Positions 1 to 12,873 are shown, counted from the first letter of the stretch. The stretch: DNA of 32,000 bases from Cereibacter sphaeroides 2.4.1 (GCF_000012905.2 NC_007493.2:1230001-1262000); one strand, 5' to 3'. Numbers and translations are program-made. The notes: generated by a model from the letters alone, not told the origin.

Positions 1-567
1 TTCAACGGGATGCAGAGCTCTCTTTCCATGGTCTACGACCGCGAGACGGGCGCGATGCGGACGCTGCTCGTCAGCCCCTATCCGCGCTGGTTCCTTCTCG
101 GCTCGAAGCTCGTGGCGGGCGTGCTGGTCTCGATCCTGCAGGTCTATGCTTTCCTCCTCATCGCCTGGCTCTGGGGCATCCGCCCGCCGCCGCTCGGCTA
201 TCTCGCCGTCCTGCCCGCGCTGTTCCTGTCGGGGCTGATGCTGGGCGCGCTCGGCCTCTTCATCTCGTCGGCGATCCGGCAGCTCGAGAACTTCGCGGGC
301 GTGATGAACTTCGTGATCTTCCCGATGTTCTTCGCCTCGACCGCGCTCTATCCGCTGTGGCGGCTGAAGGACTCGAGCCCGCTTCTGGCCGATATCGCGC
401 TGGCCAATCCCTTCACCCACGCGGTCGAACTGATCCGCTTTGCCCTCTACCGGCAGGTCGAGCCTCTGGCGCTGGCCGTGGTCGCGGGCGCAGGCCTCGT
501 CTTCTTCGGAGCGGCGGTCTTCATGTACGATCCCTCGAAGGGCCTGTGGGCCCTGCGCAAGCGATAG
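1..567 (+). CDS. ABC-2 type exporter permease, C-terminal part (5' end lies outside the window)
   Basis: Frame 1 is open from nt 1 to TAG 565-567. The translation is a series of hydrophobic helices (LVAGVLVSILQVYAFLLIAWLWG, FVIFPMFFASTALYP, LAVVAGAGLVFFGAAVF) typical of ABC-2/NodJ-like permeases. The context fits the exporter found in PQQ-dehydrogenase clusters. Confidence 0.75.
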   Translation, partial: FNGMQSSLSMVYDRETGAMRTLLVSPYPRWFLLGSKLVAGVLVSILQVYAFLLIAWLWGIRPPPLGYLAVLPALFLSGLMLGALGLFISSAIRQLENFAGVMNFVIFPMFFASTALYPLWRLKDSSPLLADIALANPFTHAVELIRFALYRQVEPLALAVVAGAGLVFFGAAVFMYDPSKGLWALRKR

Positions 568-576
568 GAGGTTCCC

Positions 577-1170
577 ATGCTCAGATGGTGCATTCCGGCG
601 ATCCTCGCGGCGGGCACCGCCATGGGGGCGGATTTCTCCGATCCCGACTGGCCCTGCATCCAGCGCAAGCAGCCGCATCTGTCGCTGGGGCAGGTCTGGA
701 GCGGGCCTCTCCCGGATGCCGCGACCGAAGAGCTGGCGCGCGAACCGGCGATCCAGGGGTTGGCGCAGGAGCTGGAACAGCGGCGGCTTCCGGTGGAAGA
801 GGCCGAAGGGCGGATCGCCCGGTTCGCCGCCGACCACGAGCCGCAGGAGCTGGTGGCGCTCTATGTCGCGACCTTCGAGCGGATCGAATCCGTCCGCAAC
901 CGCGTGATGGCGGGCATCACCCGCTATGCCCACAGCCAGGAGGCGCTCGACCGCCGGATCAACGCGGCCCGCACCGAGATGGGCCGGCTCATGGCGGCGG
1001 AGGACAAGGACTTCGACCGGATCGACGCACTCGAGGAGCAGCTCGACTGGGACACGCGGATCTTCCGCGAGCGCCAGCAGTCGCTGACCTATGTCTGCGA
1101 GACGCCGGTGATCCTCGAGCGCCGGGCCTTCGCCCTGGGCCGGGCGGTGACGCAGCACCTGCCGAAATAG
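577..1170 (+). CDS. Secreted hypothetical protein coupled to the ABC-2 exporter (helical, coiled-coil-like)
   Basis: The ATG lies 9 nt after the permease stop and is preceded by TAGGAGGTTCCC (strong SD). Third codon positions are GC-rich. The N-terminus has a signal peptide (MLRWCIPAILAAGTAMGA). The mature part is rich in E/R/A/L, and I recognise no domain. Confidence 0.6.
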   Translation: MLRWCIPAILAAGTAMGADFSDPDWPCIQRKQPHLSLGQVWSGPLPDAATEELAREPAIQGLAQELEQRRLPVEEAEGRIARFAADHEPQELVALYVATFERIESVRNRVMAGITRYAHSQEALDRRINAARTEMGRLMAAEDKDFDRIDALEEQLDWDTRIFRERQQSLTYVCETPVILERRAFALGRAVTQHLPK

Positions 1171-1314
1171 TCGCGCCCGCTGTCGATGCGACGCGCCCCG
1201 TGCTGCACGCTGGGTGCTGCGCGGTTTCTCCCCCGCGCGCTCCCGATGCGGTTGGGCAGCCTGAAGCGGCGCTCCTCACCGACGTCCGCCCGCCGTCCGG
1301 CCGGGGCGGGTGGC

Positions 1315-2358
1315 CTATTCCCACTCCAGCTCGGCATAGGCGGCCGAGGCGTTGCGCGGATGGCTCTCCTCGTAGCCCGTCCAGTGCCGCGCGTCTTCGG
1401 GATCGCGCGCGCGGATCGCGGCGCTCATCGGCAGTCCCTCGGCAATCGCCGCGCGGATCGTGGTGCGCAGATGCTCGAGATAGGCGCGCGTCGCCTGCGC
1501 TCCCTCGGGCCAGGGCAGCGGCGCGGGACCGTGCCCCGGCACGATGCGGCGCACCTCGGGATGGGCGGCCGAAAGCCAGCCGATCCAGCCTTTGAGCGAG
1601 CCGTCGAGCGTCGGCAGCAGGCCGTTGAACACCAGATCGCCGGTGAAGAGCGTGCCCGAGACCGGCTCGAACACCGTCAGGTCATTGTCGGTATGGGCCG
1701 TGGGCACCGCCTGCAGATGCAGCCGGAGGCCGCCCAGATCCAGCCACTCCTCCGCCACGCCGCGGTCGGGCGGCACGGGCCGCGTGCCGAGCAGCGCGCC
1801 CGCGCCGATCTGCGTGGGATAGCTCTCCATCCAGCCCTCGGCGCGCGCCTCGATGCCCGCGGCGAGTTTCGGCGCCCCGAGGATCTCGGCGCCCGCCTCG
1901 CGGAAGAGATCGGCGCCGAACGTGTGGTCGGGATGCATGTGGGTCAGGATCACCGCCCGGATCGGCAGGTCGCTGCGCGCGCGGATCGCGGCATAGAGGG
2001 CCTCCGCCTCGGCCCGGCTCGCGCCTGCGTCGATGACGGCGATCCCTTCGGTGCCGATGGCAAGGCTCAGATTGGCGATGGCGCCGCGGTTCTGCGGATC
2101 GGGCAGGGCGGTCTGCCCCTCATGCACCCAGAGGCCGCCGCCGATCTCCTTCATCGCAAGCCGCGGCAGCGCCTCGGTGGGCAGGCACCGGCTCTCGCCC
2201 CCGGCAAGCTCGGGATGCGCCGAAAGCCAGTCCGCCGCCCGCGCCTCCGCGGTTTTCCGGCAGTCGGCCTCGCTCAGCGCCGCGGGTGCCGGAAGCAGCC
2301 GCTCGGCGCAGAGGGCGGGATCCGCCAGCAGGCAGACGCTCAGCATCAGATGAAACAT
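1315..2358 (-). CDS. Secreted MBL-fold zinc metallohydrolase (quinoprotein relay system zinc metallohydrolase-like)
   Basis: It carries the HxHxDH motif (ILTHMHPDHTFG) plus downstream His/Asp ligands. I start it at ATG 2358 (MFHLMLSVCLLADPALCA, signal-like; AGAGG SD upstream) rather than ORF-track 2427. It is divergent from the SoxYZ-like carrier gene. Confidence 0.8.
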   Translation of the reverse strand: MFHLMLSVCLLADPALCAERLLPAPAALSEADCRKTAEARAADWLSAHPELAGGESRCLPTEALPRLAMKEIGGGLWVHEGQTALPDPQNRGAIANLSLAIGTEGIAVIDAGASRAEAEALYAAIRARSDLPIRAVILTHMHPDHTFGADLFREAGAEILGAPKLAAGIEARAEGWMESYPTQIGAGALLGTRPVPPDRGVAEEWLDLGGLRLHLQAVPTAHTDNDLTVFEPVSGTLFTGDLVFNGLLPTLDGSLKGWIGWLSAAHPEVRRIVPGHGPAPLPWPEGAQATRAYLEHLRTTIRAAIAEGLPMSAAIRARDPEDARHWTGYEESHPRNASAAYAELEWE

Positions 2359-2463
2359 GCCTCTGCCTAGCCGCTTCCGCAGGCGCGCGCACTCAGCCGA
2401 AAGTCTCATAGGCGGGGCGGGCTGCACATGGTTTCATGTTGACTGCCAGCACAGGAGATCGCC

Positions 2464-3270
2464 ATGCGCATCGTCCGGTCGAGCATCATTTGTGCAGTTC
2501 TGCTGACCACCCCGCTCTGGGCCGAGGAAAAGCCCAGTCCGCTCCAGTCGGGCGAGGCCTGGGAGAGCCTGCAATTCGACGTCTTCGGCACCGGGGACAT
2601 CGTCGAGACGCCCGGCGCGCTCAGCCTCGACACGCCCTTTCGGGCGCACGATCCGGCGCTCGTGCCGGTGCGGGTGACGCAACCTCCCGACGGGCCGCGG
2701 ATCGAGGAACTGACCTTGGTCATCGACGAGAACCCTGCGCCGGTGGCCGCGACCTTCACGCTGGGCCCGGCGATGCATCCGCTCGATCTCGAGGTGCGGG
2801 TGCGGGTCAATGCCTATTCCAACGTGCGCGCGGTGGCGCGGACGGAAGGCGGCCAGTGGCAGATGGCAGGCCGCTTCGTCCGCGCGACGGGGGGATGTGC
2901 CGCGCCTGCGGGCAAGGATGCCGAGGCGGCTCTGGCCCATCTGGGGCAGATGCGGTTTCAGCCCGTCTCCGCCGACACGAGTGGCGGCGACCTGCGGCGC
3001 GAGGCCAAGCTCATGATCCGGCACCCGAACTATTCGGGGCTGCAACGCGATCAGGTCTCGCTGATGATGATCCCCGCCCGATTCATCGACCGGCTCGAGG
3101 TGATGCAGGGCGAAGAGCTTCTGTTCTCGATGACCGGCGGCATCTCGATCTCGGAGGATCCGGTCTTCACCTTCCGCTACCGCGACAATGGCGCAGGCGA
3201 GGTGACGGTGCGGGCCGTGGACACGGAAGGGGTGGAGTTCGGGGCGACCTTCCCGCTGCCTGCCGGCTGA
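2464..3270 (+). CDS. Fused SoxY/SoxZ-like periplasmic carrier protein (quinoprotein dehydrogenase-associated SoxYZ-like carrier)
   Basis: An AGGAG SD lies 6 nt upstream of the ATG. It has a signal peptide (MRIVRSSIICAVLLTTPLWA). The N-half is SoxY-like and ends in an internal GGC motif (RATGGCAAPAG, Cys145 = nt 2896-2898). The C-half is SoxZ-like (MIRHPNYSGLQ...SISEDPVFTFRY). Confidence 0.75.
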   Translation: MRIVRSSIICAVLLTTPLWAEEKPSPLQSGEAWESLQFDVFGTGDIVETPGALSLDTPFRAHDPALVPVRVTQPPDGPRIEELTLVIDENPAPVAATFTLGPAMHPLDLEVRVRVNAYSNVRAVARTEGGQWQMAGRFVRATGGCAAPAGKDAEAALAHLGQMRFQPVSADTSGGDLRREAKLMIRHPNYSGLQRDQVSLMMIPARFIDRLEVMQGEELLFSMTGGISISEDPVFTFRYRDNGAGEVTVRAVDTEGVEFGATFPLPAG

Positions 3271-3436
3271 CGGCAACATTTGCCCGCCGAAGGGAACCGC
3301 AAGGGCTTGTCGCCCGTTGGGGAAACCGGGCAAGATCGTCCGGGATGCGGATGCGACCATAGGGAGCGTGACGGTCGGGGCCGACGGGGAAGACCGCGCA
3401 GGGAGGAGGAAGCCCGCGCGGAAACGGGAGGAAGAG

Positions 3437-4144
3437 ATGGGACATGTTTCGGGAGGCATCGCCTGCGCAGGGGCGCAGCGGGTGCCCACACGCATGATCG
3501 GCGACATCCTGATCGTCGATGACCACCCGCTGATGTGCGACGCGCTGGCGATGACCTTGACCCACGCCTTCGGCCTGAAACGCGTCCGCAGCGCCGCGAG
3601 CCTCGCCGCGGCGGAGAAGATCCTGCGCGAGGGGCCCTTGCCCGATGCCATCGTGCTCGACCTGAACCTGCCGGACGTGCGCGGCATCGAGGGCGTGATG
3701 AGCCTGCAGAAGCTCGCGCGGAGCGTGCCGCTCACGGTGATCTCGGCCGAGGTCGATGCCGAGATGGTGACGGCCGCCATGGCGGCCGGGGCGCAGGGCT
3801 ATGTCTCGAAAAGCCTGCCGCGGCCGCAGATGGTCGAGGCTTTCGCCCGGATGTGGACCGGCGAATTCGTCACGCCCGAGGAATACGATGCCGACGGGGC
3901 GGGCGAGGACGGCGGCGAGCAGATGCGCGAGCTGGCCCGCAGCTTCGCCACCCTCACGCCGCAGCAGATGAACATCCTGCGGCTGATCTGTCAGGGCCGG
4001 CCGAACAAGCTCATCTCCTACGAGCTCTCGATCGCCGAAGCGACGGTCAAGACCCACATCGCCGCCATCATGACGAAGATCAACGTGAGAAACCGCACGC
4101 AGGCGGCCCTGCTGGCCAGCAAGGCGCGGATCTTCGCGCGGTAG
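3437..4144 (+). CDS. LuxR/NarL-family two-component response regulator (REC + LuxR HTH)
   Basis: The REC domain shows ILIVDDHPL...VLDLNLPD...YVSK. The C-terminal LuxR HTH shows LTPQQMNILRLICQGRPNKLISYELSIAEATVKTHIAAIMTKINVRNRTQA. Start ATG 3437 follows GGGAGGAAGAG. ATG 3494 (MIGDILIVDD) is an alternative but has no SD. ORF-track start 3317 is unsupported. Confidence 0.85.
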   Translation: MGHVSGGIACAGAQRVPTRMIGDILIVDDHPLMCDALAMTLTHAFGLKRVRSAASLAAAEKILREGPLPDAIVLDLNLPDVRGIEGVMSLQKLARSVPLTVISAEVDAEMVTAAMAAGAQGYVSKSLPRPQMVEAFARMWTGEFVTPEEYDADGAGEDGGEQMRELARSFATLTPQQMNILRLICQGRPNKLISYELSIAEATVKTHIAAIMTKINVRNRTQAALLASKARIFAR

Positions 4145-4154
4145 GGAGCGTCGC

Positions 4155-5315
4155 GTGACGACAGAGCATCCGGCGGAGGTGAGGGAGACCGCCCAAGGGG
4201 CGGGGGCGCCCGTGGTCTTGTCAGAGCCTGCGGATGCGCCGGATCTGGCCGAGCGCCTGCGGGCCGGGCTGGCGGACGCACGGCCCGCGGCCGTCCTGCT
4301 CTTCGCCTCGCCGGGCGCCGATCTTCCGGCGCTGGCGGCCCATCTCGGGCCCGCTCTCGGCACGCGGGTCGTGGGCTGCTCCTCGGCGGGCGAATTCGCC
4401 TGCGGCGGCTACGGCCACGGTCACGTCGTGGCGGTGGGCCTGCCGGCGGCACGCTTCCGCACCGAGGCGGTGTGGCTGCGCAACCTCGCCGGGCTCGGCG
4501 TCTCGGAATGGATGGCCGAGCTGCGCGCGCTCTTTTCCCGCTTCGAGGTCCAGCCGCGGCGGCACCGCTTCGGGCTTCTCCTGATCGACGGGCTCAGCCG
4601 TCAGGAGGAGCTGGTGGCGGCGACCGTCGATGCGGTGGCCCACCGCCTGCCGGTGCTGGGCGGATCGGCGGGCGACGGGCTGCGCTTCGAGGAGACCTGC
4701 CTCGTCCTCGACGGCGAGAGCCACCGCGACAGCGCGATCTTCGCGCTGTTCGAGACGGATTTCGCGCTGGAGCAGGTGATCTTCGACCATTTCACCCCCT
4801 CGGGGAGCCGGATGGTGGTGACCGCCGCCGTCCCCGAGGAGCGGCTGATCCTCGAGATCAACGCCGAGCCCGCGGCCGAGGAATATGCGCGCCTGATCGG
4901 CCTTGCGCCCGAGGCGCTGAACCCGCGCGTCTTCGCCGAGAACCCGCTCCTTGTCCGGATGGGCGGGCAATATCACGTCCGCGCCATCCGCGAGGTCACG
5001 CCCGAGGGCGGGCTCACCCTCATGTCTTCGATCGAGAGCGGCGTCCTGCTGGCGCTCGGCCGGGCCGACGATCTGACCCACGGGCTTCAGGCCCGGCTCG
5101 AGGCCTTGGGAGAGCGGCCTGCGCTGATCCTCGCCTTCGACTGCATCCTGCGCCGTCTCGCCCTCGAACAGGCGGGGCTCGAGCCCGCCGTGGCGCGGCT
5201 CTTCGCCGACTGGCGCATCGCGGGCTTCAACACCTACGGCGAGCAGCACGGCGGTGTGCATGTGAACCAGACCTTCGTGGGCCTCGCCCTGATGGAGCCC
5301 GCCCATGCTGCGTGA
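4155..5315 (+). CDS. FIST-N/FIST-C domain sensor protein (NosP-like)
   Basis: GTG start lies 10 nt after the response-regulator stop, with a GGGAG SD. It is 386 aa and cytoplasmic. Its FIST-type C-terminus (FNTYGEQHGGVHVNQTFVGLAL) and its position immediately upstream of, and overlapping, a NahK/ErcS-type kinase match the NosP-NahK arrangement. Confidence 0.7.
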   Translation: MTTEHPAEVRETAQGAGAPVVLSEPADAPDLAERLRAGLADARPAAVLLFASPGADLPALAAHLGPALGTRVVGCSSAGEFACGGYGHGHVVAVGLPAARFRTEAVWLRNLAGLGVSEWMAELRALFSRFEVQPRRHRFGLLLIDGLSRQEELVAATVDAVAHRLPVLGGSAGDGLRFEETCLVLDGESHRDSAIFALFETDFALEQVIFDHFTPSGSRMVVTAAVPEERLILEINAEPAAEEYARLIGLAPEALNPRVFAENPLLVRMGGQYHVRAIREVTPEGGLTLMSSIESGVLLALGRADDLTHGLQARLEALGERPALILAFDCILRRLALEQAGLEPAVARLFADWRIAGFNTYGEQHGGVHVNQTFVGLALMEPAHAA

Positions 5316-6738
5316 CGACGACGGCCTCGAACGGCAGGTCGAGAAGCTGAAGCGGATCAACGCGGCGCTCGTCGAGCGGCTGGATCGCGCCGATGCCTCG
5401 CGCGGCTCGCACTGGATGCTGTTCCAGACCGCGACCGTGCTCGAGCAGGAGCTGCTGGCGCGCAACCGCGATCTGGAACAGGCGCTCGCCCATCTGGAAT
5501 CGGTGAACCGGGAACTGGCCCTCGCGCGCGAGACGGCGGACGAGGCGAACCGCTCGAAGAGCCGTTTCCTGCGCGCCGCAAGCCACGATCTGCTGCAACC
5601 CCTGAGTGCCGCCAAGCTCTTCCTGTCGCATCTGTCCGAAACGGTGAACGAACCGCTGCAGGCCGATCTGGTCTCGCGGATCGGCACGGCCTTCGATTCG
5701 ACCGAAGAGCTGATCCGCGCGCTGCTCGAGATCTCGCGGCTCGATTCCGTCAGGCTCGACATTTCGACCGAGCGGGTCTCGCTGGGCCGGCTCTTCCAGC
5801 GGCTGATGGTGGATTTCCACGGCGACGCGGCCGCCCGCGGGCTGGAACTGCGCTTCGTCAACTCCTCGGCCACGGTCATGTCGAACCCGGTCTTCCTGCG
5901 CCGGATCGCCCAGAACCTCGTCTCGAACGCGATCAAATACACGCGGACGGGCCGGGTGCTCGTCGGCGCCCGGCGCGAGGGGGCGGATGTCTGGCTCGAG
6001 GTGCATGACACGGGCCCCGGCATCGCGCCCGAGGACCGCGAGCGGATCTTCAACGAATTCGAGCGGCTGGCGCCCGAAGGCGAGGAACCGGGCACGGGCC
6101 TCGGCCTCTCCATCGTGCGGCGCGCCTGCCTGCGGCTCGGCCACGAGGTCGCACTCGACAGTGCCCCGGGGCGCGGCTCGGTCTTCCGCATCCGCCTGCC
6201 GCGCGCGCTCGAGGCGCCGGGGGCGATCGAGGCGGGACCGGCCTCGGCGGCCAGCACCGGCGCGGTCCAGCGTCTGGCCGGAGCGCCACCGGAGCAGATG
6301 CTGATGGCCGATCCGGTGGCGGCGGGCCCTGCGGCCGCGCCCCTCGTCGGGCGGCGGGTGCTGGTGGTCGAGAACGATGCAGCGATGCGCGACGCCTATG
6401 CGCTCCTCCTCCGGCGCTGGGGGATGCTGGTCGCCACGGCCGACGGCACTCAAGCGGCCCTCGACCGTCTCGGAAGCTTTCTGCCCGAGCTTCTGGTGAC
6501 CGATTACCGGCTCGACCGCGGGGAGACCGGCCTTCAGACCATCGCGGCGCTGCGCCGCCGTCTGGGTCCGCGCCTGCCCGCGCTGATCGTGACGGCCGAA
6601 CCCGCCGCCCAGCTCGAAGCGCAGGCCGACCGGCTGGAGGCCGCGCTGCTGCGCAAGCCGGTGTCCGAGAGCGCGCTGCGCGAGCGGCTCTCGGCGCTTC
6701 TGGAGGGCCGCCGCCGGAGAGCGGCCGCCGCGGAATGA
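5305..6738 (+). CDS. Soluble hybrid sensor histidine kinase/response regulator (NahK/ErcS-like)
   Basis: The ATG overlaps the FIST gene by 11 nt. It has an N-terminal coiled coil (LERQVEKLKRINAALVERL), H-box SHDLLQPLSAAKL, N-box LVSNAIKYT, G-boxes HDTGPGI and GTGLGLSIV, and a C-terminal REC domain (VLVVENDAAM...LLVTDYRLD). There are no transmembrane segments. Confidence 0.85.
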   Translation: MLRDDDGLERQVEKLKRINAALVERLDRADASRGSHWMLFQTATVLEQELLARNRDLEQALAHLESVNRELALARETADEANRSKSRFLRAASHDLLQPLSAAKLFLSHLSETVNEPLQADLVSRIGTAFDSTEELIRALLEISRLDSVRLDISTERVSLGRLFQRLMVDFHGDAAARGLELRFVNSSATVMSNPVFLRRIAQNLVSNAIKYTRTGRVLVGARREGADVWLEVHDTGPGIAPEDRERIFNEFERLAPEGEEPGTGLGLSIVRRACLRLGHEVALDSAPGRGSVFRIRLPRALEAPGAIEAGPASAASTGAVQRLAGAPPEQMLMADPVAAGPAAAPLVGRRVLVVENDAAMRDAYALLLRRWGMLVATADGTQAALDRLGSFLPELLVTDYRLDRGETGLQTIAALRRRLGPRLPALIVTAEPAAQLEAQADRLEAALLRKPVSESALRERLSALLEGRRRRAAAAE

Positions 6739-6748
6739 AAGGATGAGC

Positions 6749-7357
6749 ATGAGACCCTTGCGAGCGATGCTGCTCCTCGTGGCGCTGACGGTGGCCACCG
6801 GGGCCGAAGCCGGACGGCTGGCCGAGGTGATCTTCCGCCCCGGCGCCTTCGCCGCCACCGGCGAGGTCACGTGCTACGCCCATCGGCGCGAGGGGCCCGA
6901 GGTGCGGGGCCTCCAGCTCGTGCCCGAGGGCGCGCTTCTGGTCTCTCCCGTGGCCAGCGCCGAGGGCCCGCGTCTCGCGCTCGTCCAGAGGGTGGACGGG
7001 CGCGACCAGCCCGTCGCCAGTTTCTCGGCCGCGGGCGGCGATCCGGTGCTCCTGTGGTTCCTCGAGAACACGGTGCGCAGCATGGCGACCATCACCGAGG
7101 GCAGCCCCTTCTACATCCGCAACCGGATGCGCGAAGCGCTCGGGGCCGCCGGTCTCGCCGAGGCCGAGGGGCCGGTGACGGCCGAACTGCGCCCGTTCGC
7201 CGAGGATCCGAAGCGGGCCGCGATGGGCGCCTTCGCGGGCCTCGTCCTCCGGATCACCGTCGATCCCTCCGCCCCCGTTCCGATCCGCGCGCTTGAAGCC
7301 GATACGACGGCCGCGGGCGGCATCTACCGCGAGACCCTGACGTTGGAGGCGCCATGA
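6749..7357 (+). CDS. Secreted hypothetical protein
   Basis: It starts 4-10 nt after the kinase stop. ATG 6749 has AAAGGA 5 nt upstream; ATG 6743 is the alternative. It has a signal peptide (MRPLRAMLLLVALTVATGAEA) and GC-rich third positions. I recognise no domain. Confidence 0.6.
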   Translation: MRPLRAMLLLVALTVATGAEAGRLAEVIFRPGAFAATGEVTCYAHRREGPEVRGLQLVPEGALLVSPVASAEGPRLALVQRVDGRDQPVASFSAAGGDPVLLWFLENTVRSMATITEGSPFYIRNRMREALGAAGLAEAEGPVTAELRPFAEDPKRAAMGAFAGLVLRITVDPSAPVPIRALEADTTAAGGIYRETLTLEAP

Positions 7358-7857
7358 CTTCCCTTCTGCCGTTCCCCCGCATGCGGTGCCTCGCGCTGAT
7401 CCTGGCCCTCCTGCCGCTGCCCGCCATCGCGCAGACCGGCACACCCGCCGCGCCGCCGGAAGTCTCAGGCGGCGCTCCCACCGCGGCCCCCCAGCACACG
7501 GGCGAGGCAGCCCCGCCCGGCGCGGCGCGGGGGCCGGATGCGGGCGCGGTGCGCGCCGCGCCCGATCTCCATTTCGACGAGCGCCTCAACGATTATCCGA
7601 CGCTGGCGCGCGCCGACTATATCTTCGCCTGCCTCGCGACCAACGGGCAAGATCGCAACACGATGCGGCGTTGCGCCTGCTCCATCGACGTGATCGCCTC
7701 GATCCTGCCCTACGAGGCCTATGAGAAGGCCGAGACCATCCTCTCGATGCGACTGGGGACGGGCGAGCGCGCCGGCCTGTTCCGGATTCCCGCGACGCAG
7801 GCCGGCGTGGCCGACCTCCGGCGCGCGCAGGCGGAAGCCGAGATGACCTGCTTCTGA
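7354..7857 (+). CDS. Secreted hypothetical Cys-containing protein with an Ala/Pro-rich linker
   Basis: Its start overlaps the upstream stop in an ATGA arrangement, with a GGAGG SD 4 nt upstream. It has a signal-like N-terminus (RCLALILALLPLPAIAQ), a roughly 45-aa A/P/G linker, then a globular part with Cys93, Cys107, Cys109 and Cys166. Confidence 0.6.
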   Translation: MTSLLPFPRMRCLALILALLPLPAIAQTGTPAAPPEVSGGAPTAAPQHTGEAAPPGAARGPDAGAVRAAPDLHFDERLNDYPTLARADYIFACLATNGQDRNTMRRCACSIDVIASILPYEAYEKAETILSMRLGTGERAGLFRIPATQAGVADLRRAQAEAEMTCF

Positions 7858-7949
7858 GGAGCGCCCGGCCGCCTTCGGGCGAGCGCAGTCCCGCGACCCC
7901 GGCGGGATTGCCGACCTCCGGCGCGCACAGGCGGACGCCGGGATGACCT
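7810..7949. repeat. Imperfect 40-nt direct repeat (7810-7849 and 7910-7949), exactly 100 bp apart
   Basis: Position-by-position alignment gives 37/40 identities, with mismatches at 7827, 7836 and 7841. Copy 1 is the last 40 nt before the final two codons of CDS 7354-7857. Copy 2 is intergenic, just before the stop of the convergent ABC ATPase gene. Confidence 0.85.
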
Positions 7950-7954
7950 CCGGC

Positions 7955-8737
7955 CTACCTTCGTCCGTGGAAGTCCGAGCCGGGGTCGTTCAGCACCATG
8001 TCGCGCAGCCGCTCCCAGAGATGGCGGCGGAGTTCGGCATAGAGGGGCAGGGCGCGGGTATCGGTGTCGCGGCGCGGGCGGGGGAAGGGAACGGCCACCT
8101 CCTCGACCACCCGGCCCGGTCGCGGCGACATGAGGAGGATCCGGTCGGCGAGGATCAGCGCCTCATCCACCGAATGCGTGACGAAGAGCACAGTCGCCGG
8201 GCGCCGCTCCAGAAGCCGCATGAGCTCGACCTGCATGAGCTCGCGCGCCTGCGCGTCGAGGCTCGCGAAGGGCTCGTCCATCAGCAGGATCTCGGGTTCG
8301 GCCGCGAGCGCGCGTGCCAGCGCCAGCCGCTGGCGCATCCCTCCCGACAGCTGGGCCGGCCAGCTTTTCGCGAAGCGTGAAAGACCGACCAGCTCGAGGT
8401 AGCGGTCGGCCCGCTGCCGCGCCTCGGCCCGCGACAGCCGCGGCAGGGCGAAGGCCACATTCTCGCGGGCGCTCTTCCAGGGGATCAGCCGGAAGGACTG
8501 GAATACCAGCGCCGTCTTTTCACCCGGACGCGGCGGCGCGCCCTCGACCGTCACCCGGCCCGCGTCGGGCGCGATCAGCCCCGCCACGAGGCGCATGAGC
8601 GTGGTCTTGCCGCAGCCCGAGGGGCCGAGCACCACCACCACCTCGTCGCGGCCGAGCGACAGTGAGACGTCCTCCAGCGCAGAGACCTCGCCGAAGGCCA
8701 GCGACACACGGTCGAGCCGGACGTGCTCGGCCCTCAC
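7955..8737 (-). CDS. ABC transporter ATP-binding protein (NitT/TauT nitrate/sulfonate/taurine-type)
   Basis: It has Walker A GPSGCGKTT, signature LSGGMRQRLALARAL and Walker B LLMDEPFASLD. I chose the GTG start at 8737 because it forms a GTGA overlap with the SBP stop and gives a typical 260 aa. The ORF-track extension to 8980 overlaps the SBP gene. Confidence 0.85.
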   Translation of the reverse strand: MRAEHVRLDRVSLAFGEVSALEDVSLSLGRDEVVVVLGPSGCGKTTLMRLVAGLIAPDAGRVTVEGAPPRPGEKTALVFQSFRLIPWKSARENVAFALPRLSRAEARQRADRYLELVGLSRFAKSWPAQLSGGMRQRLALARALAAEPEILLMDEPFASLDAQARELMQVELMRLLERRPATVLFVTHSVDEALILADRILLMSPRPGRVVEEVAVPFPRPRRDTDTRALPLYAELRRHLWERLRDMVLNDPGSDFHGRR

Positions 8738-11340: not shown

Positions 11341-12065
11341 CAGTCGGCCCTCTCGGCGGGCATCATGCTGGTTGCGGTCATGTCGGCCTTCGGGCGCGGC
11401 TCCTCGGGCAGGCTGCCGGTGACCAGATAGATCACCTGCTCGGCGATCGAGGTGGCATGGTCGCCCATCCGCTCGATGTTCTTGGCGATGAAATGCAGAT
11501 GCATGCAGGCGGTGATGTTGCGCGGATCCTCCATCATGTGGGTAAGGAACTCGCGGAACAGGGCATTGTACATCTGATCCACCTCGCGGTCGCGCTGGCG
11601 CACGTCCGCGGCGAGCTGGGCATCGCGGTGAATGTAGCTGTCGAGCGCATCCTTGAGCAGCAGCTCGACCGCATTGGCCATGCGCCGGATCGAGCCCGTC
11701 GAGTCGCCCACCTGCGCCAGCTGACCCAGAACGACCGAGCGTTTGGCGAGGTTCTTGGCATAGTCGCCGCAGCGTTCGAGCGCCGCCGCGATCTTGATGA
11801 CGGTCAGCACGGTGCGCAGGTCGGTCGCCGTGGGCGAGCGCAGCGCGATCAGCCGCGCGGCCTCGGCCTGGATCCGCTCCTCGAGCGCGTCGATGGCCGC
11901 GTCGTTGCGCCGGACCTGTTCGGCCAGCTCCTCGTCGCGGGTTTCGAGGGCCTGCGCGGCATCAAGGATCGCCGCCTCGACCATGCCGCCCATCTTCATG
12001 ATGAGGGCCTGCACGGCCTCGAGATCGCGGTCGAAGGCCTGGAAGATATGGGGTTCTGTCATCAT
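11340..12065 (-). CDS. phoU: Phosphate signalling complex protein PhoU
   Basis: It has two PhoU repeats (ERCGDYAKNLAKR and ERMGDHATSIAEQ). I start it at ATG 12065, which is preceded by GAGGAGGA immediately after the pstB stop. The ORF-track start 12161 overlaps pstB. Confidence 0.9.
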   Translation of the reverse strand: MMTEPHIFQAFDRDLEAVQALIMKMGGMVEAAILDAAQALETRDEELAEQVRRNDAAIDALEERIQAEAARLIALRSPTATDLRTVLTVIKIAAALERCGDYAKNLAKRSVVLGQLAQVGDSTGSIRRMANAVELLLKDALDSYIHRDAQLAADVRQRDREVDQMYNALFREFLTHMMEDPRNITACMHLHFIAKNIERMGDHATSIAEQVIYLVTGSLPEEPRPKADMTATSMMPAERAD

Positions 12066-12075
12066 GCGGTCCTCC

Positions 12076-12873
12076 TCAGCCGATCCGGCCCGAGATGTAG
12101 CTTTCCGTGCGGGGATCACGCGGATTGGTGAAGATCTGGCCCGTCTCGCCGTATTCGACAAGGCGGCCGAGGTGAAAGAAGGCGGTGCGCTGGCTCACGC
12201 GGGCGGCCTGCTGCATCGAGTGGGTGACGATCACCACCGAGAATTGCGCGCGCAGCTCGTCGATCAGCTCCTCGATCTGGGCGGTGGCGATCGGGTCGAG
12301 CGCCGAGCAGGGCTCGTCCATCAGCAGCACCTCGGGCGAGGTGGCGATGGCGCGGGCGATGCAGAGCCTCTGCTGCTGGCCGCCCGAGAGGCCGGTGCCG
12401 GGCGAGGACAGGCGGTCCTTCGCCTCGTTCCAGAGCGCGGCCCGGCGCAGGGCGCCTTCCACGATCTCGTCGATCTCGGCCTTGGACCGCGCGAGGCCGT
12501 GGATGCGCGGCCCGTAGGCCACGTTGTCGTAGATCGATTTGGGGAAGGGGTTCGGCTTCTGGAACACCATGCCCACCTTGGCGCGCAGCTGCACCGGATC
12601 GACGCGGGTGTCGTAGATGTCCTGCCCGTCGAGCGTGATCTTGCCCTCGACCCGGCACCCCGGGATCGTGTCGTTCATGCGGTTCAGGCAGCGCAGGAAG
12701 GTCGACTTGCCGCAGCCCGAAGGGCCGATGAAGGCGGTGACGGTCTTGCCGAGGATGTCCACATCCACGTCGCGGAGGGCGTGGTTGGAGCCATAGAAGA
12801 CCTGCGCCTTGCGGGCGGCGATCTTGACCTCGTCGGCGCTCACGATGCGGTCTGCGTAACGGATGTCGTCCAT
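12076..12873 (-). CDS. pstB: Phosphate ABC transporter ATP-binding protein PstB
   Basis: It has Walker [24 protein letters not shown] and [11 protein letters not shown], plus the PstB-typical [10 protein letters not shown] motif. Confidence 0.95.

Follow-up and report, generated by a model that had tools for sequence, protein, structure and literature searches.

A fused SoxYZ-like carrier and a metallo-beta-lactamase-fold partner in a lanthanide methanol dehydrogenase island of Rhodobacter sphaeroides: annotated genes and a possible periplasmic cysteine relay

Lanthanide methanol dehydrogenases of the XoxF type occur widely and are of environmental importance, and the accessory genes that travel with xoxF (SoxYZ-like, SoxH-like and rhodanese-like) form a recognised 'known unknown'. 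A window of 32,000 nucleotides from Cereibacter (Rhodobacter) sphaeroides 2.4.1 brings up this question at one divergent gene pair, which the original prediction had described as a cysteine carrier and a metallo-beta-lactamase (MBL)-fold enzyme: what would the one carry and the other hydrolyse? Both open reading frames, at 1315-2358 on the minus strand and 2464-3270 on the plus strand, are present with a coding-type GC3 (0.86-0.88), and the spacer between them (2359-2463) is exactly 105 bp, as predicted, with an AGGAG Shine-Dalgarno sequence 6 nt 5' of the carrier ATG. The window is identical to locus L001 and shows 2 mismatches in 11 kb against CP012960. The identity of the pair is almost beyond doubt: these are the already named SoxYZ-like carrier and relay metallohydrolase 2, accompanying a lanthanide/PQQ-dependent methanol dehydrogenase in R. 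sphaeroides. Since RefSeq names both genes, with identical names for C. sphaeroides proteins at 96-98% identity, and papers from 2024 and 2026 discuss both as uncharacterised, the feature was already known. The original prediction thus re-identifies annotated genes, and its hypothesis is weakened by the available evidence. Its remark that no biochemical demonstration is known agrees with the literature searched, which reports neither a biochemical function for carrier or hydrolase nor an experiment showing a carrier adduct or a hydrolase substrate.

The carrier (268 residues), a quinoprotein dehydrogenase-associated fused SoxYZ-like protein, scored 270 bits against TIGR04557, whose curated equivalog cut-off is 140, over model positions 1-225 of 226. 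The predicted fusion of a SoxY half to a SoxZ half was borne out by Pfam, with SoxY at residues 39-145 (1.4e-30) and SoxZ at residues 179-262 (4.1e-22), as well as by Foldseek, in which the AlphaFold2 model (pLDDT 85.8, pTM 0.83) best matched SoxY (2ox5/2oxg, TM on target 0.82-0.84) and SoxZ (1v8h/2oxh_A). Its N-terminus, MRIVRSSIICAVLLTTPLWA|EE, is canonical for Sec-type export, with a basic n-region, a hydrophobic core and an LWA|EE site; the predicted Sec signal peptide (about residues 1-20) has low pLDDT.

The carrier keeps a single GGC (residues 143-145), with the Cys145 codon (TGT) at 2896-2898 on the plus strand and within the family motif [VI]-K-A-[SA]-G-G-C-[SA]-A-P. Cys145, with AAPAGKDAEA after it, is internal and at the Y/Z junction, as had been predicted. 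The sole other cysteine, Cys10, lies inside the signal peptide. Conservation is nearly complete: 38/38 sequences keep Cys145, as do 122 of 123 diverse representatives, and in 103 of these 123 the mature protein has no other cysteine. It aligns with the last Pfam SoxY position and with position 147 of 149 in TIGR04488 ('SoxY_true_GGCGG'), which makes it homologous to the carrier cysteine of SoxY. In the model it stands at the start of the one internal stretch with pLDDT <50, the loop 146-150 right behind it, and this part of the chain, which joins the SoxY-like half to the SoxZ-like half, is predicted to be flexible.

The partner (347 residues, MBL fold) reached 346.6 bits against TIGR04559, quinoprotein relay system zinc metallohydrolase 2 (curated cut-off 280; model positions 2-283 of 283), so that both proteins score above the NCBIfam cut-offs of the families suggested for them; against TIGR04558 (relay metallohydrolase 1) it reached only 169.4 bits, with a cut-off of 300. 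The expected HxHxDH motif was found as HMHPDH at residues 140-145 (1924-1941, minus strand), conserved in homologues, in a Pfam Lactamase_B domain (3.6e-21), and 120 of 121 homologues have all seven ligands (H140, H142, D144, H145, H222, D241 and H276). The words zinc and hydrolase in the family name are themselves putative, since they derive from homology.

The AlphaFold2 model of the hydrolase (pLDDT 96.8) drew an uncharacterised Burkholderia MBL, chlorothalonil dehalogenase, alkylsulfatases (among the closest, E ~1e-15) and B1/B2 lactamases into its 50 best Foldseek neighbours. The closest solved structures are the alkylsulfatases SdsA1/Pisa1, chlorothalonil dehalogenase Chd (6uxu) and the B. 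cenocepacia MBL 8d2z (E 1.8e-19 to ~1e-13, TM on query 0.54-0.70, C-terminal helical extension included), but their identity to the hydrolase is only 19-27%, 8d2z is missing the D-H of the motif (HYHAVR), and the alkylsulfatases have additional domains and double the length. Alkylsulfatases carry out S-O hydrolysis at a binuclear Zn site. Such neighbours indicate the fold and not the substrate, and a binuclear site with seven ligands is a general feature of MBL hydrolases. Glyoxalase II has the MBL fold and HxHxDH in common with the hydrolase, but was rejected as an assignment, as TIGR03413 gave 25.6 bits against 200.8, over 58 residues around the motif only; no glyoxalase II appeared among the 50 best Foldseek neighbours, and the PDB sequence match 2xf4 (the glyoxalase II test) came at 3.9e-07, below Chd and VIM. 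Subclass B1 and B2 metallo-beta-lactamases were likewise rejected (53.3 and 33.1 bits against 200 and 240).

The pair had been taken for two signal-peptide proteins, which fits the sequence of the carrier but not that of the hydrolase. The N-terminus of the latter (MFHLMLSVC..C..C..C) has no basic n-region, and its first 66 residues (2161-2358, minus strand) form a module with four cysteines, C9, C17, C33 and C58, in the position of a signal peptide. Each of the four is invariant in 121/121 close homologues, and AlphaFold2 folds the module as a hairpin (2-22), a helix (30-46) and a strand (51-60) at pLDDT 94-98. By sequence and model, a recognisable Sec/Tat signal is absent here and in all 121 close homologues. 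The start at nt 2358 is fixed by homologues with stop codons 2-9 codons upstream, and the same start Met is used in 116/121 annotated homologues. Orthologues in Hyphomicrobiales and Azospirillum do carry Sec/Tat signals. As no signal is recognisable, it is doubtful whether the hydrolase shares a compartment with the periplasmic carrier, and in R. sphaeroides the two may never meet.

What the pair accompanies is clearer. The quinoprotein genes that the original prediction had suggested looking for upstream are there: in the source genome, adhI-cycI-xoxFGJ and a lut/PedABC-like transporter lie directly upstream of the window, with a 600-residue XoxF-type PQQ dehydrogenase, its cytochrome and a XoxJ-like protein. 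At 7-10 kb upstream, these match TIGR03075 (PQQ dehydrogenase), TIGR03874 (cytochrome) and TIGR03871 (XoxJ-like), together with a CXXCW protein (TIGR03865). XoxF has a vicinal Cys-Cys and a lanthanide-type D-Y-D motif. The rhodanese-like CxxxCW protein keeps a cysteine at the active-site strand end (VVVFC128-KRE-C132-W), invariant in 32/32. The window opens with the 3' part of an ABC-2 permease gene (10-567, plus strand; PedC/LutF-like, PQQ/lanthanide-associated; TIGR03861, 261.9 bits against 241), which begins upstream; the complete gene and the remaining transporter genes are present in loci L001/L004. Between it and the hydrolase gene, 577-1170 (plus strand) encodes p197, an exported 197-residue protein with no Pfam or NCBIfam match, whose cysteines in WPC27 and YxC174ETP are kept in 51/51.

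Downstream of the carrier, all on the plus strand, follow a LuxR/NarL-type response regulator (3437-4144; Pfam Response_reg and GerE; best NCBIfam match ErdR, below cut-off), a NosP-like FIST-domain protein (4155-5315; Pfam FIST and FIST_C; NF041558 323.7 bits, below its 450) and a soluble NahK/ErcS-like hybrid histidine kinase (5305-6738; NF041832 324 bits, below its 400). The order of this trio is that of AfdR-AfdT-AfdS, RfdRTS and FlhR-orf2-FlhS (PMC4776306). Two small exported proteins come next: p202 (6749-7357), without conserved cysteine and without a Pfam or NCBIfam family, and p167 (7354-7857), which has no Pfam, NCBIfam or PDB match and four invariant cysteines (F-x-C93, C107-x-C109 and a C-terminal C166-F; kept in 66/66). 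That the pair sits within an island of adhI-cycI-xoxFGJ, lut-like ABC transporter and regulatory trio, as the core of a conserved module, is nearly certain.

Across 80 carrier loci, the most constant partners are the hydrolase (66) and p167 (65), the latter usually immediately downstream of the carrier and convergent with it, and also encoded beside the carrier on pSymB of S. meliloti and a plasmid of Azospirillum; we found no description of this constancy in the literature and family libraries searched. p202, which co-occurs with p167, is present in 53 loci, the histidine kinase is linked in 51, the response regulator in 48, and p197 occurs in 50, most often as the immediate, divergently transcribed upstream neighbour of the hydrolase gene, in the gene-order slot of M. 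extorquens lutG (lut gene order from PMC7391723, PMC6850437). We place p197, hydrolase, carrier, p167 and p202 in the conserved core with great confidence; export signals are found in all of them but the hydrolase. The C1 context of the module is real: of 41 related loci with full flanks, 36 have xoxF or pqq genes no more than 10 kb away, xoxF is beside the module in 30/80 and adhI plus fghA in 29/80. In Azospirillum the module stands beside H4MPT formaldehyde pathway genes (fae, mch), in Paracoccus the carrier is directly 3' of pqqBCDE, and in Ancylobacter it neighbours pqq genes; genes of GSH- or H4MPT-dependent formaldehyde oxidation and AfdRS/FlhRS-like regulators thus adjoin it.

Systems with the same family names have been described in the P. 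putida KT2440 ped cluster (PP_2677/PP_2678 and PP_2666: carrier, SoxH-like metallohydrolase and rhodanese/CXXCW protein; likened here by description, PMC12997753) and in the SoxYZ-S2/S4 fusion clades of lucinid symbionts and Hyphomicrobium (PMC11237559). Like the present locus, they have a PQQ alcohol/methanol dehydrogenase, a cytochrome c, a XoxJ/PedG-like protein and a PedABC-type transporter. However, their carrier and hydrolase genes are in tandem whereas ours are divergent, the four-cysteine N-terminal module stands here in place of the hydrolase export signal, and the setting here is a C1 island (adhI, cycI, xoxF) with AfdRS/FlhRS-like regulators. A further relative by description is SoxH, a periplasmic MBL-fold protein of sox clusters that shares the fold, the binuclear-type ligands and the position beside a SoxY-type carrier. 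The NCBIfam model of our hydrolase is named SoxH_rel_PQQ_2, but it is a distinct equivalog family, and the protein here has no recognisable export signal and an extra four-cysteine domain.

How, then, should the pair be read? Homology to SoxY, SoxZ and SoxH, and the annotation of many members as 'sulfur-oxidizing protein SoxY' by JGI, might suggest a fused SoxYZ with SoxH as a genuine thiosulfate-oxidising Sox component, which is hardly credible. Both halves have the fold of Paracoccus pantotrophus SoxYZ (PDB 2ox5, 2oxg, 4uwq; TM 0.73-0.84), the homologous cysteine is likewise periplasmic and preceded by G-G, and the idea of covalent carriage on a mobile arm applies to both. However, the carrier is a single fused polypeptide and not a heterodimer, its signal is of the Sec and not the Tat type, and its motif (GGCAAPAG; GGC[SA]AP in the family) is internal where true SoxY ends in GGCGG; its 57.4 bits against true SoxY (TIGR04488, cut-off 125) and 53.6 against true SoxZ (TIGR04490, cut-off 76) refute membership. 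The context, moreover, is PQQ and C1, and no soxAX, soxB or soxCD for the partners SoxAX, SoxB and SoxCD was found in the window or in annotated related loci. The original prediction itself, a protein-tethered periplasmic route in which Cys145 binds formaldehyde or another aldehyde as a thiohemiacetal, oxidation (here assigned to XoxF) gives a thioester and the MBL enzyme releases formate, is unlikely. Thiols add spontaneously to formaldehyde and the MBL fold includes thioesterases, and this established chemistry favours it. The analogy is with GSH-dependent formaldehyde oxidation (Gfa, AdhI, FghA), in which a thiol captures the aldehyde and a thioester is hydrolysed; there the thiol is a small molecule, the pathway is cytoplasmic and FghA is a serine hydrolase. 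The neighbouring xoxF, adhI/fghA and fae/mch genes and the trio in the order of the formaldehyde-responsive AfdRS/FlhRS systems also speak for it, and the authors of PMC11237559 favour a carbon over a sulfur role. Yet the hydrolase scores far below glyoxalase II, has none among its 50 best structural neighbours and shows no recognisable export signal in this clade, the FghA thioesterase step is already supplied beside the module, and PQQ, at the base of a narrow funnel, would have to be within reach of an internal loop. In R. sphaeroides, a mutant in adhI is unable to oxidise formaldehyde (PMC4776306), and there is therefore no quantitatively relevant periplasmic bypass. The same module also occurs in the P. 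putida ped cluster, which serves ethanol and higher alcohols, with a minimal RB-TnSeq phenotype (PMC12997753), and the model leaves the CXXCW rhodanese-like protein, p167 and p197 without a role. The formaldehyde-thioester idea is thus weakened, with the C1 context in its favour.

Somewhat less improbable is a maturation or assembly set for lanthanide quinoproteins, in which the cysteine proteins form or isomerise the vicinal disulfide or chaperone PQQ or lanthanide into apo-XoxF, and the hydrolase processes a precursor or chelator. We still consider this rather unlikely. The CxC of p167 presumably resembles disulfide-isomerase mimics, which would fit such a role, as would the position of the carrier beside pqq genes in Paracoccus and Ancylobacter. 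In M. extorquens, a mutant of lutG, whose position p197 occupies, grows poorly with La, and orf6/orf7, beside pqqE and candidate counterparts of carrier, p167 and p202, are needed only with La. On the other hand, one would hardly design a disulfide oxidase as a single-cysteine carrier that is paired with a hydrolase, and lanthanides are hard Lewis acids; we know of no evidence for thiol-lanthanide chemistry. The module genes are absent in P. aeruginosa, which has only the Ca-dependent ExaA, and stand beside lanthanide-dependent PedH in P. putida, but Ca-dependent enzymes from organisms without the module have the vicinal disulfide as well (PMC12997753). A very unlikely possibility is a periplasmic sensing input, in which the carrier and its cysteine partners report aldehyde, redox, lanthanide or PQQ status to the regulatory trio controlling xoxF/adhI. 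The trio forms one continuous block with p202/p167 and the carrier in some 50 of the 80 loci and also in S. meliloti, where a stand-alone four-cysteine module is encoded just upstream of the response regulator gene, and the formaldehyde sensing mechanism of AfdRS/FlhRS is still to be explained (PMC4776306). However, the kinase and the FIST protein are soluble and cytoplasmic, without membrane or periplasmic domain, which leaves a periplasmic signal with no obvious way in, and the Azospirillum and Ancylobacter loci have carrier and p167 without the regulators.

We tentatively favour another reading, in which the genes encode a relay of periplasmic cysteines acting in the service of the lanthanide/PQQ enzyme XoxF, and not a pathway of carbon oxidation. 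The Cys145 thiolate, on its flexible loop between the two halves, would act as acceptor and take over a sulfur-linked adduct, such as a persulfide, S-sulfonate or mixed disulfide. We infer that such adducts could arise by attack of sulfur nucleophiles or thiols on XoxF, at its strained vicinal Cys122-Cys123 disulfide, or on PQQ, at the C5 carbonyl. Transfer might run via the co-conserved exported cysteine proteins, p167 (CxC and C-terminal Cys), p197 and the rhodanese-like CxxxCW protein, although the direction of transfer and the partners, like the nature of the adduct, are proposals. The binuclear metallohydrolase would hydrolyse the carrier-bound adduct, its putative substrate, and regenerate the free thiol, in parallel to the release of sulfate from SoxY-cysteine S-thiosulfonate by SoxB and, as has been proposed, by SoxH as a SoxB substitute (PMC11237559).

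The named accessory families, SoxYZ, SoxH and rhodanese-like TIGR03865, all come from the sulfur-oxidation toolkit, and p167 and p197, with four and two invariant cysteines, are both exported, which is consistent with a thiol or sulfur adduct as the cargo. The vicinal Cys-Cys of XoxF, the invariant cysteine of the rhodanese-like protein and the alkylsulfatases among the closest structural neighbours of the hydrolase fit this as well, and the frequent xoxF or pqq neighbours tie the module to the quinoprotein system. A review of the ped cluster suggests that disulfides are formed or PQQ is shielded from sulfur nucleophiles, and it points to a thioredoxin-like gene within the operon of M. extorquens (PMC12997753); in Hyphomicrobium, thiosulfate is inhibitory during growth on methanol and not during growth on formate (PMC11237559). 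Against sulfur, many hosts do not oxidise thiosulfate, and in H. denitrificans the neighbouring genes pmpAB are thiosulfate-unresponsive (PMC11582611, PMC11237559). Against the relay, P. putida transposon data show minimal phenotypes on alcohols, measured without lanthanides (PMC12997753). Two further points run counter to it: the genomic context is one of carbon (C1) and not of sulfur metabolism, and the hydrolase of this clade has no recognisable signal peptide.

Carrier and hydrolase may be only the annotated part of a larger cysteine relay, so far undescribed, that has several components and is needed specifically for the function of lanthanide-dependent XoxF, a possibility about which we remain cautious. 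Its members would be the carrier, p167, p197 (in the LutG position), the CxxxCW protein and the four-cysteine module, hydrolase-fused or separate, plus the La-specific orf6/orf7 of M. extorquens. If the cargo were identified, it would reveal either a protein-tethered periplasmic chemistry or the upkeep of a cofactor sensitive to sulfur nucleophiles and of a strained disulfide. The carrier is encoded in at least 589 species-representative genomes, and p167, p197 and the four-cysteine module add three targets for study, with R. sphaeroides and S. meliloti as genetically tractable hosts. The four-cysteine module belongs to no Pfam or NCBIfam family, and we found no description of its free-standing form in the literature or family libraries searched; it occurs as a stand-alone protein at 13 other loci.

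The divergent genes at 1315-2358 (-) and 2464-3270 (+) encode a binuclear hydrolase and a covalent-type cysteine carrier that are accessory to a XoxF/PQQ system, and this identity and general design of the pair are secure. Both proteins are already known and annotated, with RefSeq giving the same two family names (SoxYZ-like carrier and relay zinc metallohydrolase 2) to Cereibacter sphaeroides proteins 96-98% identical to them. Three features absent from the papers and family libraries searched make the long-recognised question of their function more tractable, without answering it: a small exported protein (p167) that is a constant partner of the carrier, a four-cysteine module that occurs fused to the hydrolase or free, and a paradox in the export of the hydrolase. 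Because the window is about 70% G+C, many of its long open reading frames are artefacts, and real frames were told by third-position GC. The hydrolase (347 aa, GC3 0.88) and carrier (268 aa, GC3 0.86) are both of coding type, and the predicted spacer of exactly 105 bp separates them; the ORFs at 357-1595 (+), 1186-2370 (+), 2434-3780 (-) and 4221-6257 (-) are opposite-strand or other-frame artefacts, not genes.

The carrier gene is preceded by an AGGAG ribosome-binding site, and its product has a classical Sec-type N-terminus followed by Pfam SoxY (residues 39-145) and SoxZ (179-262) domains, in agreement with the proposed fusion. It has two cysteines, Cys10 within the signal peptide and Cys145 (TGT, nt 2896-2898) within the internal motif RATGGCAAPAG, where it had been placed. 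Since the SoxY models stop exactly at Cys145 (position 112/112 in Pfam; 147/149 in TIGR04488, whose model end is GGCGG), this residue corresponds by homology to the cysteine with which SoxY carries its cargo, though internal. It never varies among 38 sequences that share 51-87% identity with the query, and 122/123 representatives at 34-55% identity keep it; their motif is [VI]-K-A-[SA]-G-G-C-[SA]-A-P, and in 103 of the 123 it is the sole cysteine of the mature protein. The structure model is confident (pLDDT 85.8, pTM 0.83), with Foldseek matches to SoxY 2ox5/2oxg (TM on target 0.82-0.84) and SoxZ 1v8h and 2oxh_A. In it, Cys145 comes after the last SoxY strand (132-141), and since residues 146-150, just past it, are the sole internal stretch with pLDDT below 50, the model predicts a flexible internal arm at this point. 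That the carrier is part of a genuine Sox thiosulfate pathway is ruled out by scores far under the true SoxY (57 vs 125) and SoxZ (54 vs 76) cut-offs, by its motif and by the lack of sox partner genes in the window and the loci annotated. In one R. sphaeroides assembly (CP047031.1, locus L002), the carrier at 11888-12693 is called as two ORFs, SoxY (183 aa) and SoxZ (85 aa); splits also affect xoxF and the genes for the FIST protein, the kinase and the ABC transporter, which points to assembly frameshift errors and not to a real unfused variant. The candidate carrier locus tag RSP_2590 was reported as up-regulated upon Pos19 over-expression, which we did not count as evidence.

The hydrolase carries HMHPDH at residues 140-145 within a Lactamase_B domain, as expected of the proposed HxHxDH enzyme, and passes TIGR04559, 'quinoprotein relay system zinc metallohydrolase 2' (346.6 bits, cut-off 280). 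It falls under the cut-offs of relay metallohydrolase type 1 (169 vs 300), glyoxalase II (25.6 vs 200.8) and the B1/B2 lactamases. Its seven ligands (H140, H142, D144, H145, H222, D241 and H276) are kept in 120/121 homologues. The structure model is very confident (pLDDT 96.8), and its best structural neighbours are, in rank order, an uncharacterised Burkholderia MBL protein (8d2z), chlorothalonil dehalogenase (6uxu), the alkylsulfatases SdsA1 and Pisa1, and B1/B2 lactamases; glyoxalase II is absent from the top 50. The HMM and structural rankings together rule out a glyoxalase-II-type thioesterase.

Of the two signal peptides originally called, that of the carrier stands, but the hydrolase in this clade appears, from its sequence and model, to have none. 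Its N-terminus, M-F-E/H-x-h-h-x-h-C9 ... C17 ... C33 ... C58, lacks a basic n-region, and 116/121 annotated homologues begin at the same Met. Upstream starts at GTG 2427 or ATG 2409, which would add a basic n-region, were rejected: in homologues a stop falls 2-9 codons ahead of the aligned Met, and conservation does not extend 5' of that Met. Conservation and the model instead define a module of 66 residues (window 2161-2358, -; C-x7-C-x15-C-x24-C), modelled as a hairpin (2-22), a helix (30-46) and a strand (51-60) with pLDDT 94-98. All four cysteines are kept in 121/121 homologues, so a paired-loss test for disulfide partners is uninformative. The module belongs to no family in Pfam or NCBIfam. 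Classical Sec or Tat-like signals replace it in the TIGR04559 proteins of four Hyphomicrobiales-type loci and of an Azospirillum plasmid, and the four such members scored match or beat the R. sphaeroides protein (354-404 bits). All other small proteins of the cluster have normal signal peptides. Because the module stands where orthologues have signals, the periplasmic location of the R. sphaeroides hydrolase is in doubt, and whether it would be periplasmic or not is, judging by sequence and model, the main unexplained point. An HMM of residues 1-66 further recovered the module as a free ORF, 65-75 aa long, in 13 other loci (L010, L021, L025, L028, L034, L041, L045, L060, L068, L072, L073, L077 and L086:19383-19613), also without a signal peptide; in S. 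meliloti pSymB, such an ORF with identical spacing lies just 5' of the response-regulator gene.

Relatives of the carrier occur in at least 589 species genomes. Among the best 80 loci, all from Alphaproteobacteria, with partner genes counted by tblastn, the hydrolase accompanies the carrier in 66 and p167 in 65, followed by p202 (53/80), the kinase (51/80), p197 (50/80), the response regulator (48/80) and the FIST protein (47/80). The genes xoxF, xoxG, xoxJ and that for the rhodanese-like CXXCW protein are each found in about 31/80, adhI in 28/80, fghA in 24/80 and pqqB/C/E in 18-19/80; where at least 9 kb is available on both sides, 36/41 loci have xoxF or pqq genes. The exported p167 (7354-7857, +) has four invariant cysteines (F-x-C93, C107-x-C109 and, as the extreme C-terminus, C166-F). 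Most genomes have it directly 3' of the carrier and convergent with it, and it also accompanies the carrier in S. meliloti pSymB, whose layout is of the Roseobacter type, and on the Azospirillum plasmid, where an H4MPT formaldehyde-oxidation cluster ends with the genes for hydrolase, carrier and p167. In R. sphaeroides it lies downstream of the kinase gene with p202 (6749-7357, +), an exported protein of no recognised family. A third exported protein, p197 (577-1170, +), has two invariant cysteines (WPC27 and YxC174ETP) and mostly travels with hydrolase and carrier, not with the transporter (6/80 loci for the permease). Profile searches with p167, p197 and p202 gave no significant match among PDB sequences, Pfam or NCBIfam. 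In Paracoccus the divergent hydrolase is followed by pqqBCDE, carrier, response regulator, FIST, kinase, p202 and p167; in Ancylobacter, carrier and p167 adjoin pqqEDCB, and the 10 kb around them holds no hydrolase gene.

The quinoprotein genes anticipated by the original prediction are indeed present directly upstream of the window, in the order adhI, cycI, a 600-aa PQQ dehydrogenase (TIGR03075), a methanol-related cytochrome c (TIGR03874), a XoxJ-like protein (TIGR03871), the CXXCW protein (TIGR03865), which retains VVVFC-xxx-CW, and a PQQ-associated ABC transporter (substrate-binding protein, beta-propeller, ATPase and permease), inside whose permease gene the window starts. XoxF has a vicinal Cys-Cys and a lanthanide-type D-Y-D motif. 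The M. extorquens order lutA-B-C-D-E-F-G parallels substrate-binding protein, beta-propeller, p147, p82, ATPase, permease and p197, which places p197 in the lutG slot. The small exported proteins p147 and p82 (7702-8145 and 8161-8409 in loci L001/L004, upstream of the window) have no NCBIfam match and sit between the beta-propeller and ATPase genes, in positions parallel to lutC/lutD; lanthanide binding has been reported for one of the two lut products. Growth with La is impaired in M. extorquens lutG, orf6 and orf7 mutants; orf6/orf7 (META1p1746/1747 of strain AM1) adjoin pqqE near xoxF1GJ, and their deletion hampers methanol growth only when La3+ is supplied (PMC7391723). In layout, orf6/orf7 resemble carrier and p167 (or p202/p167) beside the pqq genes of Ancylobacter and Paracoccus; the literature searched does not state their products, and an Ancylobacter-seeded homologue search returned no named Methylobacteriaceae among its best 120 matches.

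We tentatively favour a reading in which a thiol/sulfur-adduct relay would protect or repair XoxF. SoxYZ fusion clades that adjoin ADH or xoxF, with soxH and rhodanese, were defined in a 2024 study and suggested to serve carbon metabolism or to guard methanol dehydrogenase against thiosulfate (PMC11237559), and Sox(YZ)/SoxH genes were noted, though not taken further, by the Dahl group in a Hyphomicrobium PQQ cluster (PMC11582611). The original prediction instead had the carrier thiol capture an aldehyde, which would be oxidised to a thioester and released as acid by the hydrolase. This cycle is chemically coherent and agrees with the C1 gene context, but we consider it unlikely: the hydrolase has other structural affinities and no export signal, an R. 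sphaeroides adhI mutant is unable to oxidise formaldehyde (PMC4776306), FghA is encoded adjacent, and the cysteine proteins are left unexplained. A 2026 review of the ped cluster lists PP_2666, PP_2677 and PP_2678 as uncharacterised, with minimal RB-TnSeq phenotypes without rare earths, and puts forward two ideas, one being disulfide formation or cofactor stabilisation and the other the shielding of PQQ from sulfur nucleophiles (PMC12997753). A role of the carrier/hydrolase module in maturation seems to us rather doubtful.

A sensing role of the module appears very improbable, and part of the probability belongs to none of these four readings. The genes 3' of the carrier encode a LuxR-type response regulator (3437-4144, +), a FIST protein (4155-5315, +) and a soluble hybrid kinase (5305-6738, +), which are ErdR-, NosP- and NahK-like (Pseudomonas proteins), all under cut-offs. 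They share their order with R. sphaeroides AfdR-AfdT-AfdS and RfdRTS and with Paracoccus FlhR-orf2-FlhS, which regulate formaldehyde/C1 genes through a mode of sensing as yet unexplained (PMC4776306).

The rest of the window, from 7955 on, is taken up by genes with no relation to the module: an Ssu-like ABC transporter, phoB, phoU and the pst operon, then SRAP, ArsR, CorA, dCTP deaminase, MerR, FabH, PlsX and MnmA. In many Roseobacter-group assemblies (L008, L014, L016, L018-L020, L025, L032, L034, L043-L045, L048, L050, L061 and L062) the contig stops about 2 kb 5' of the carrier, just past p197; complete loci have the class III alcohol dehydrogenase gene adhI and fghA at that position, and the ends are probably assembly breaks at a multi-copy gene. 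Over the 11 kb compared, the window has two mismatches to CP012960 and is identical to L001, a 238-kb contig labelled human skin metagenome (ENA ERZ938332), in which this R. sphaeroides chromosome fragment is most likely a spike-in, mock-community member or contaminant.
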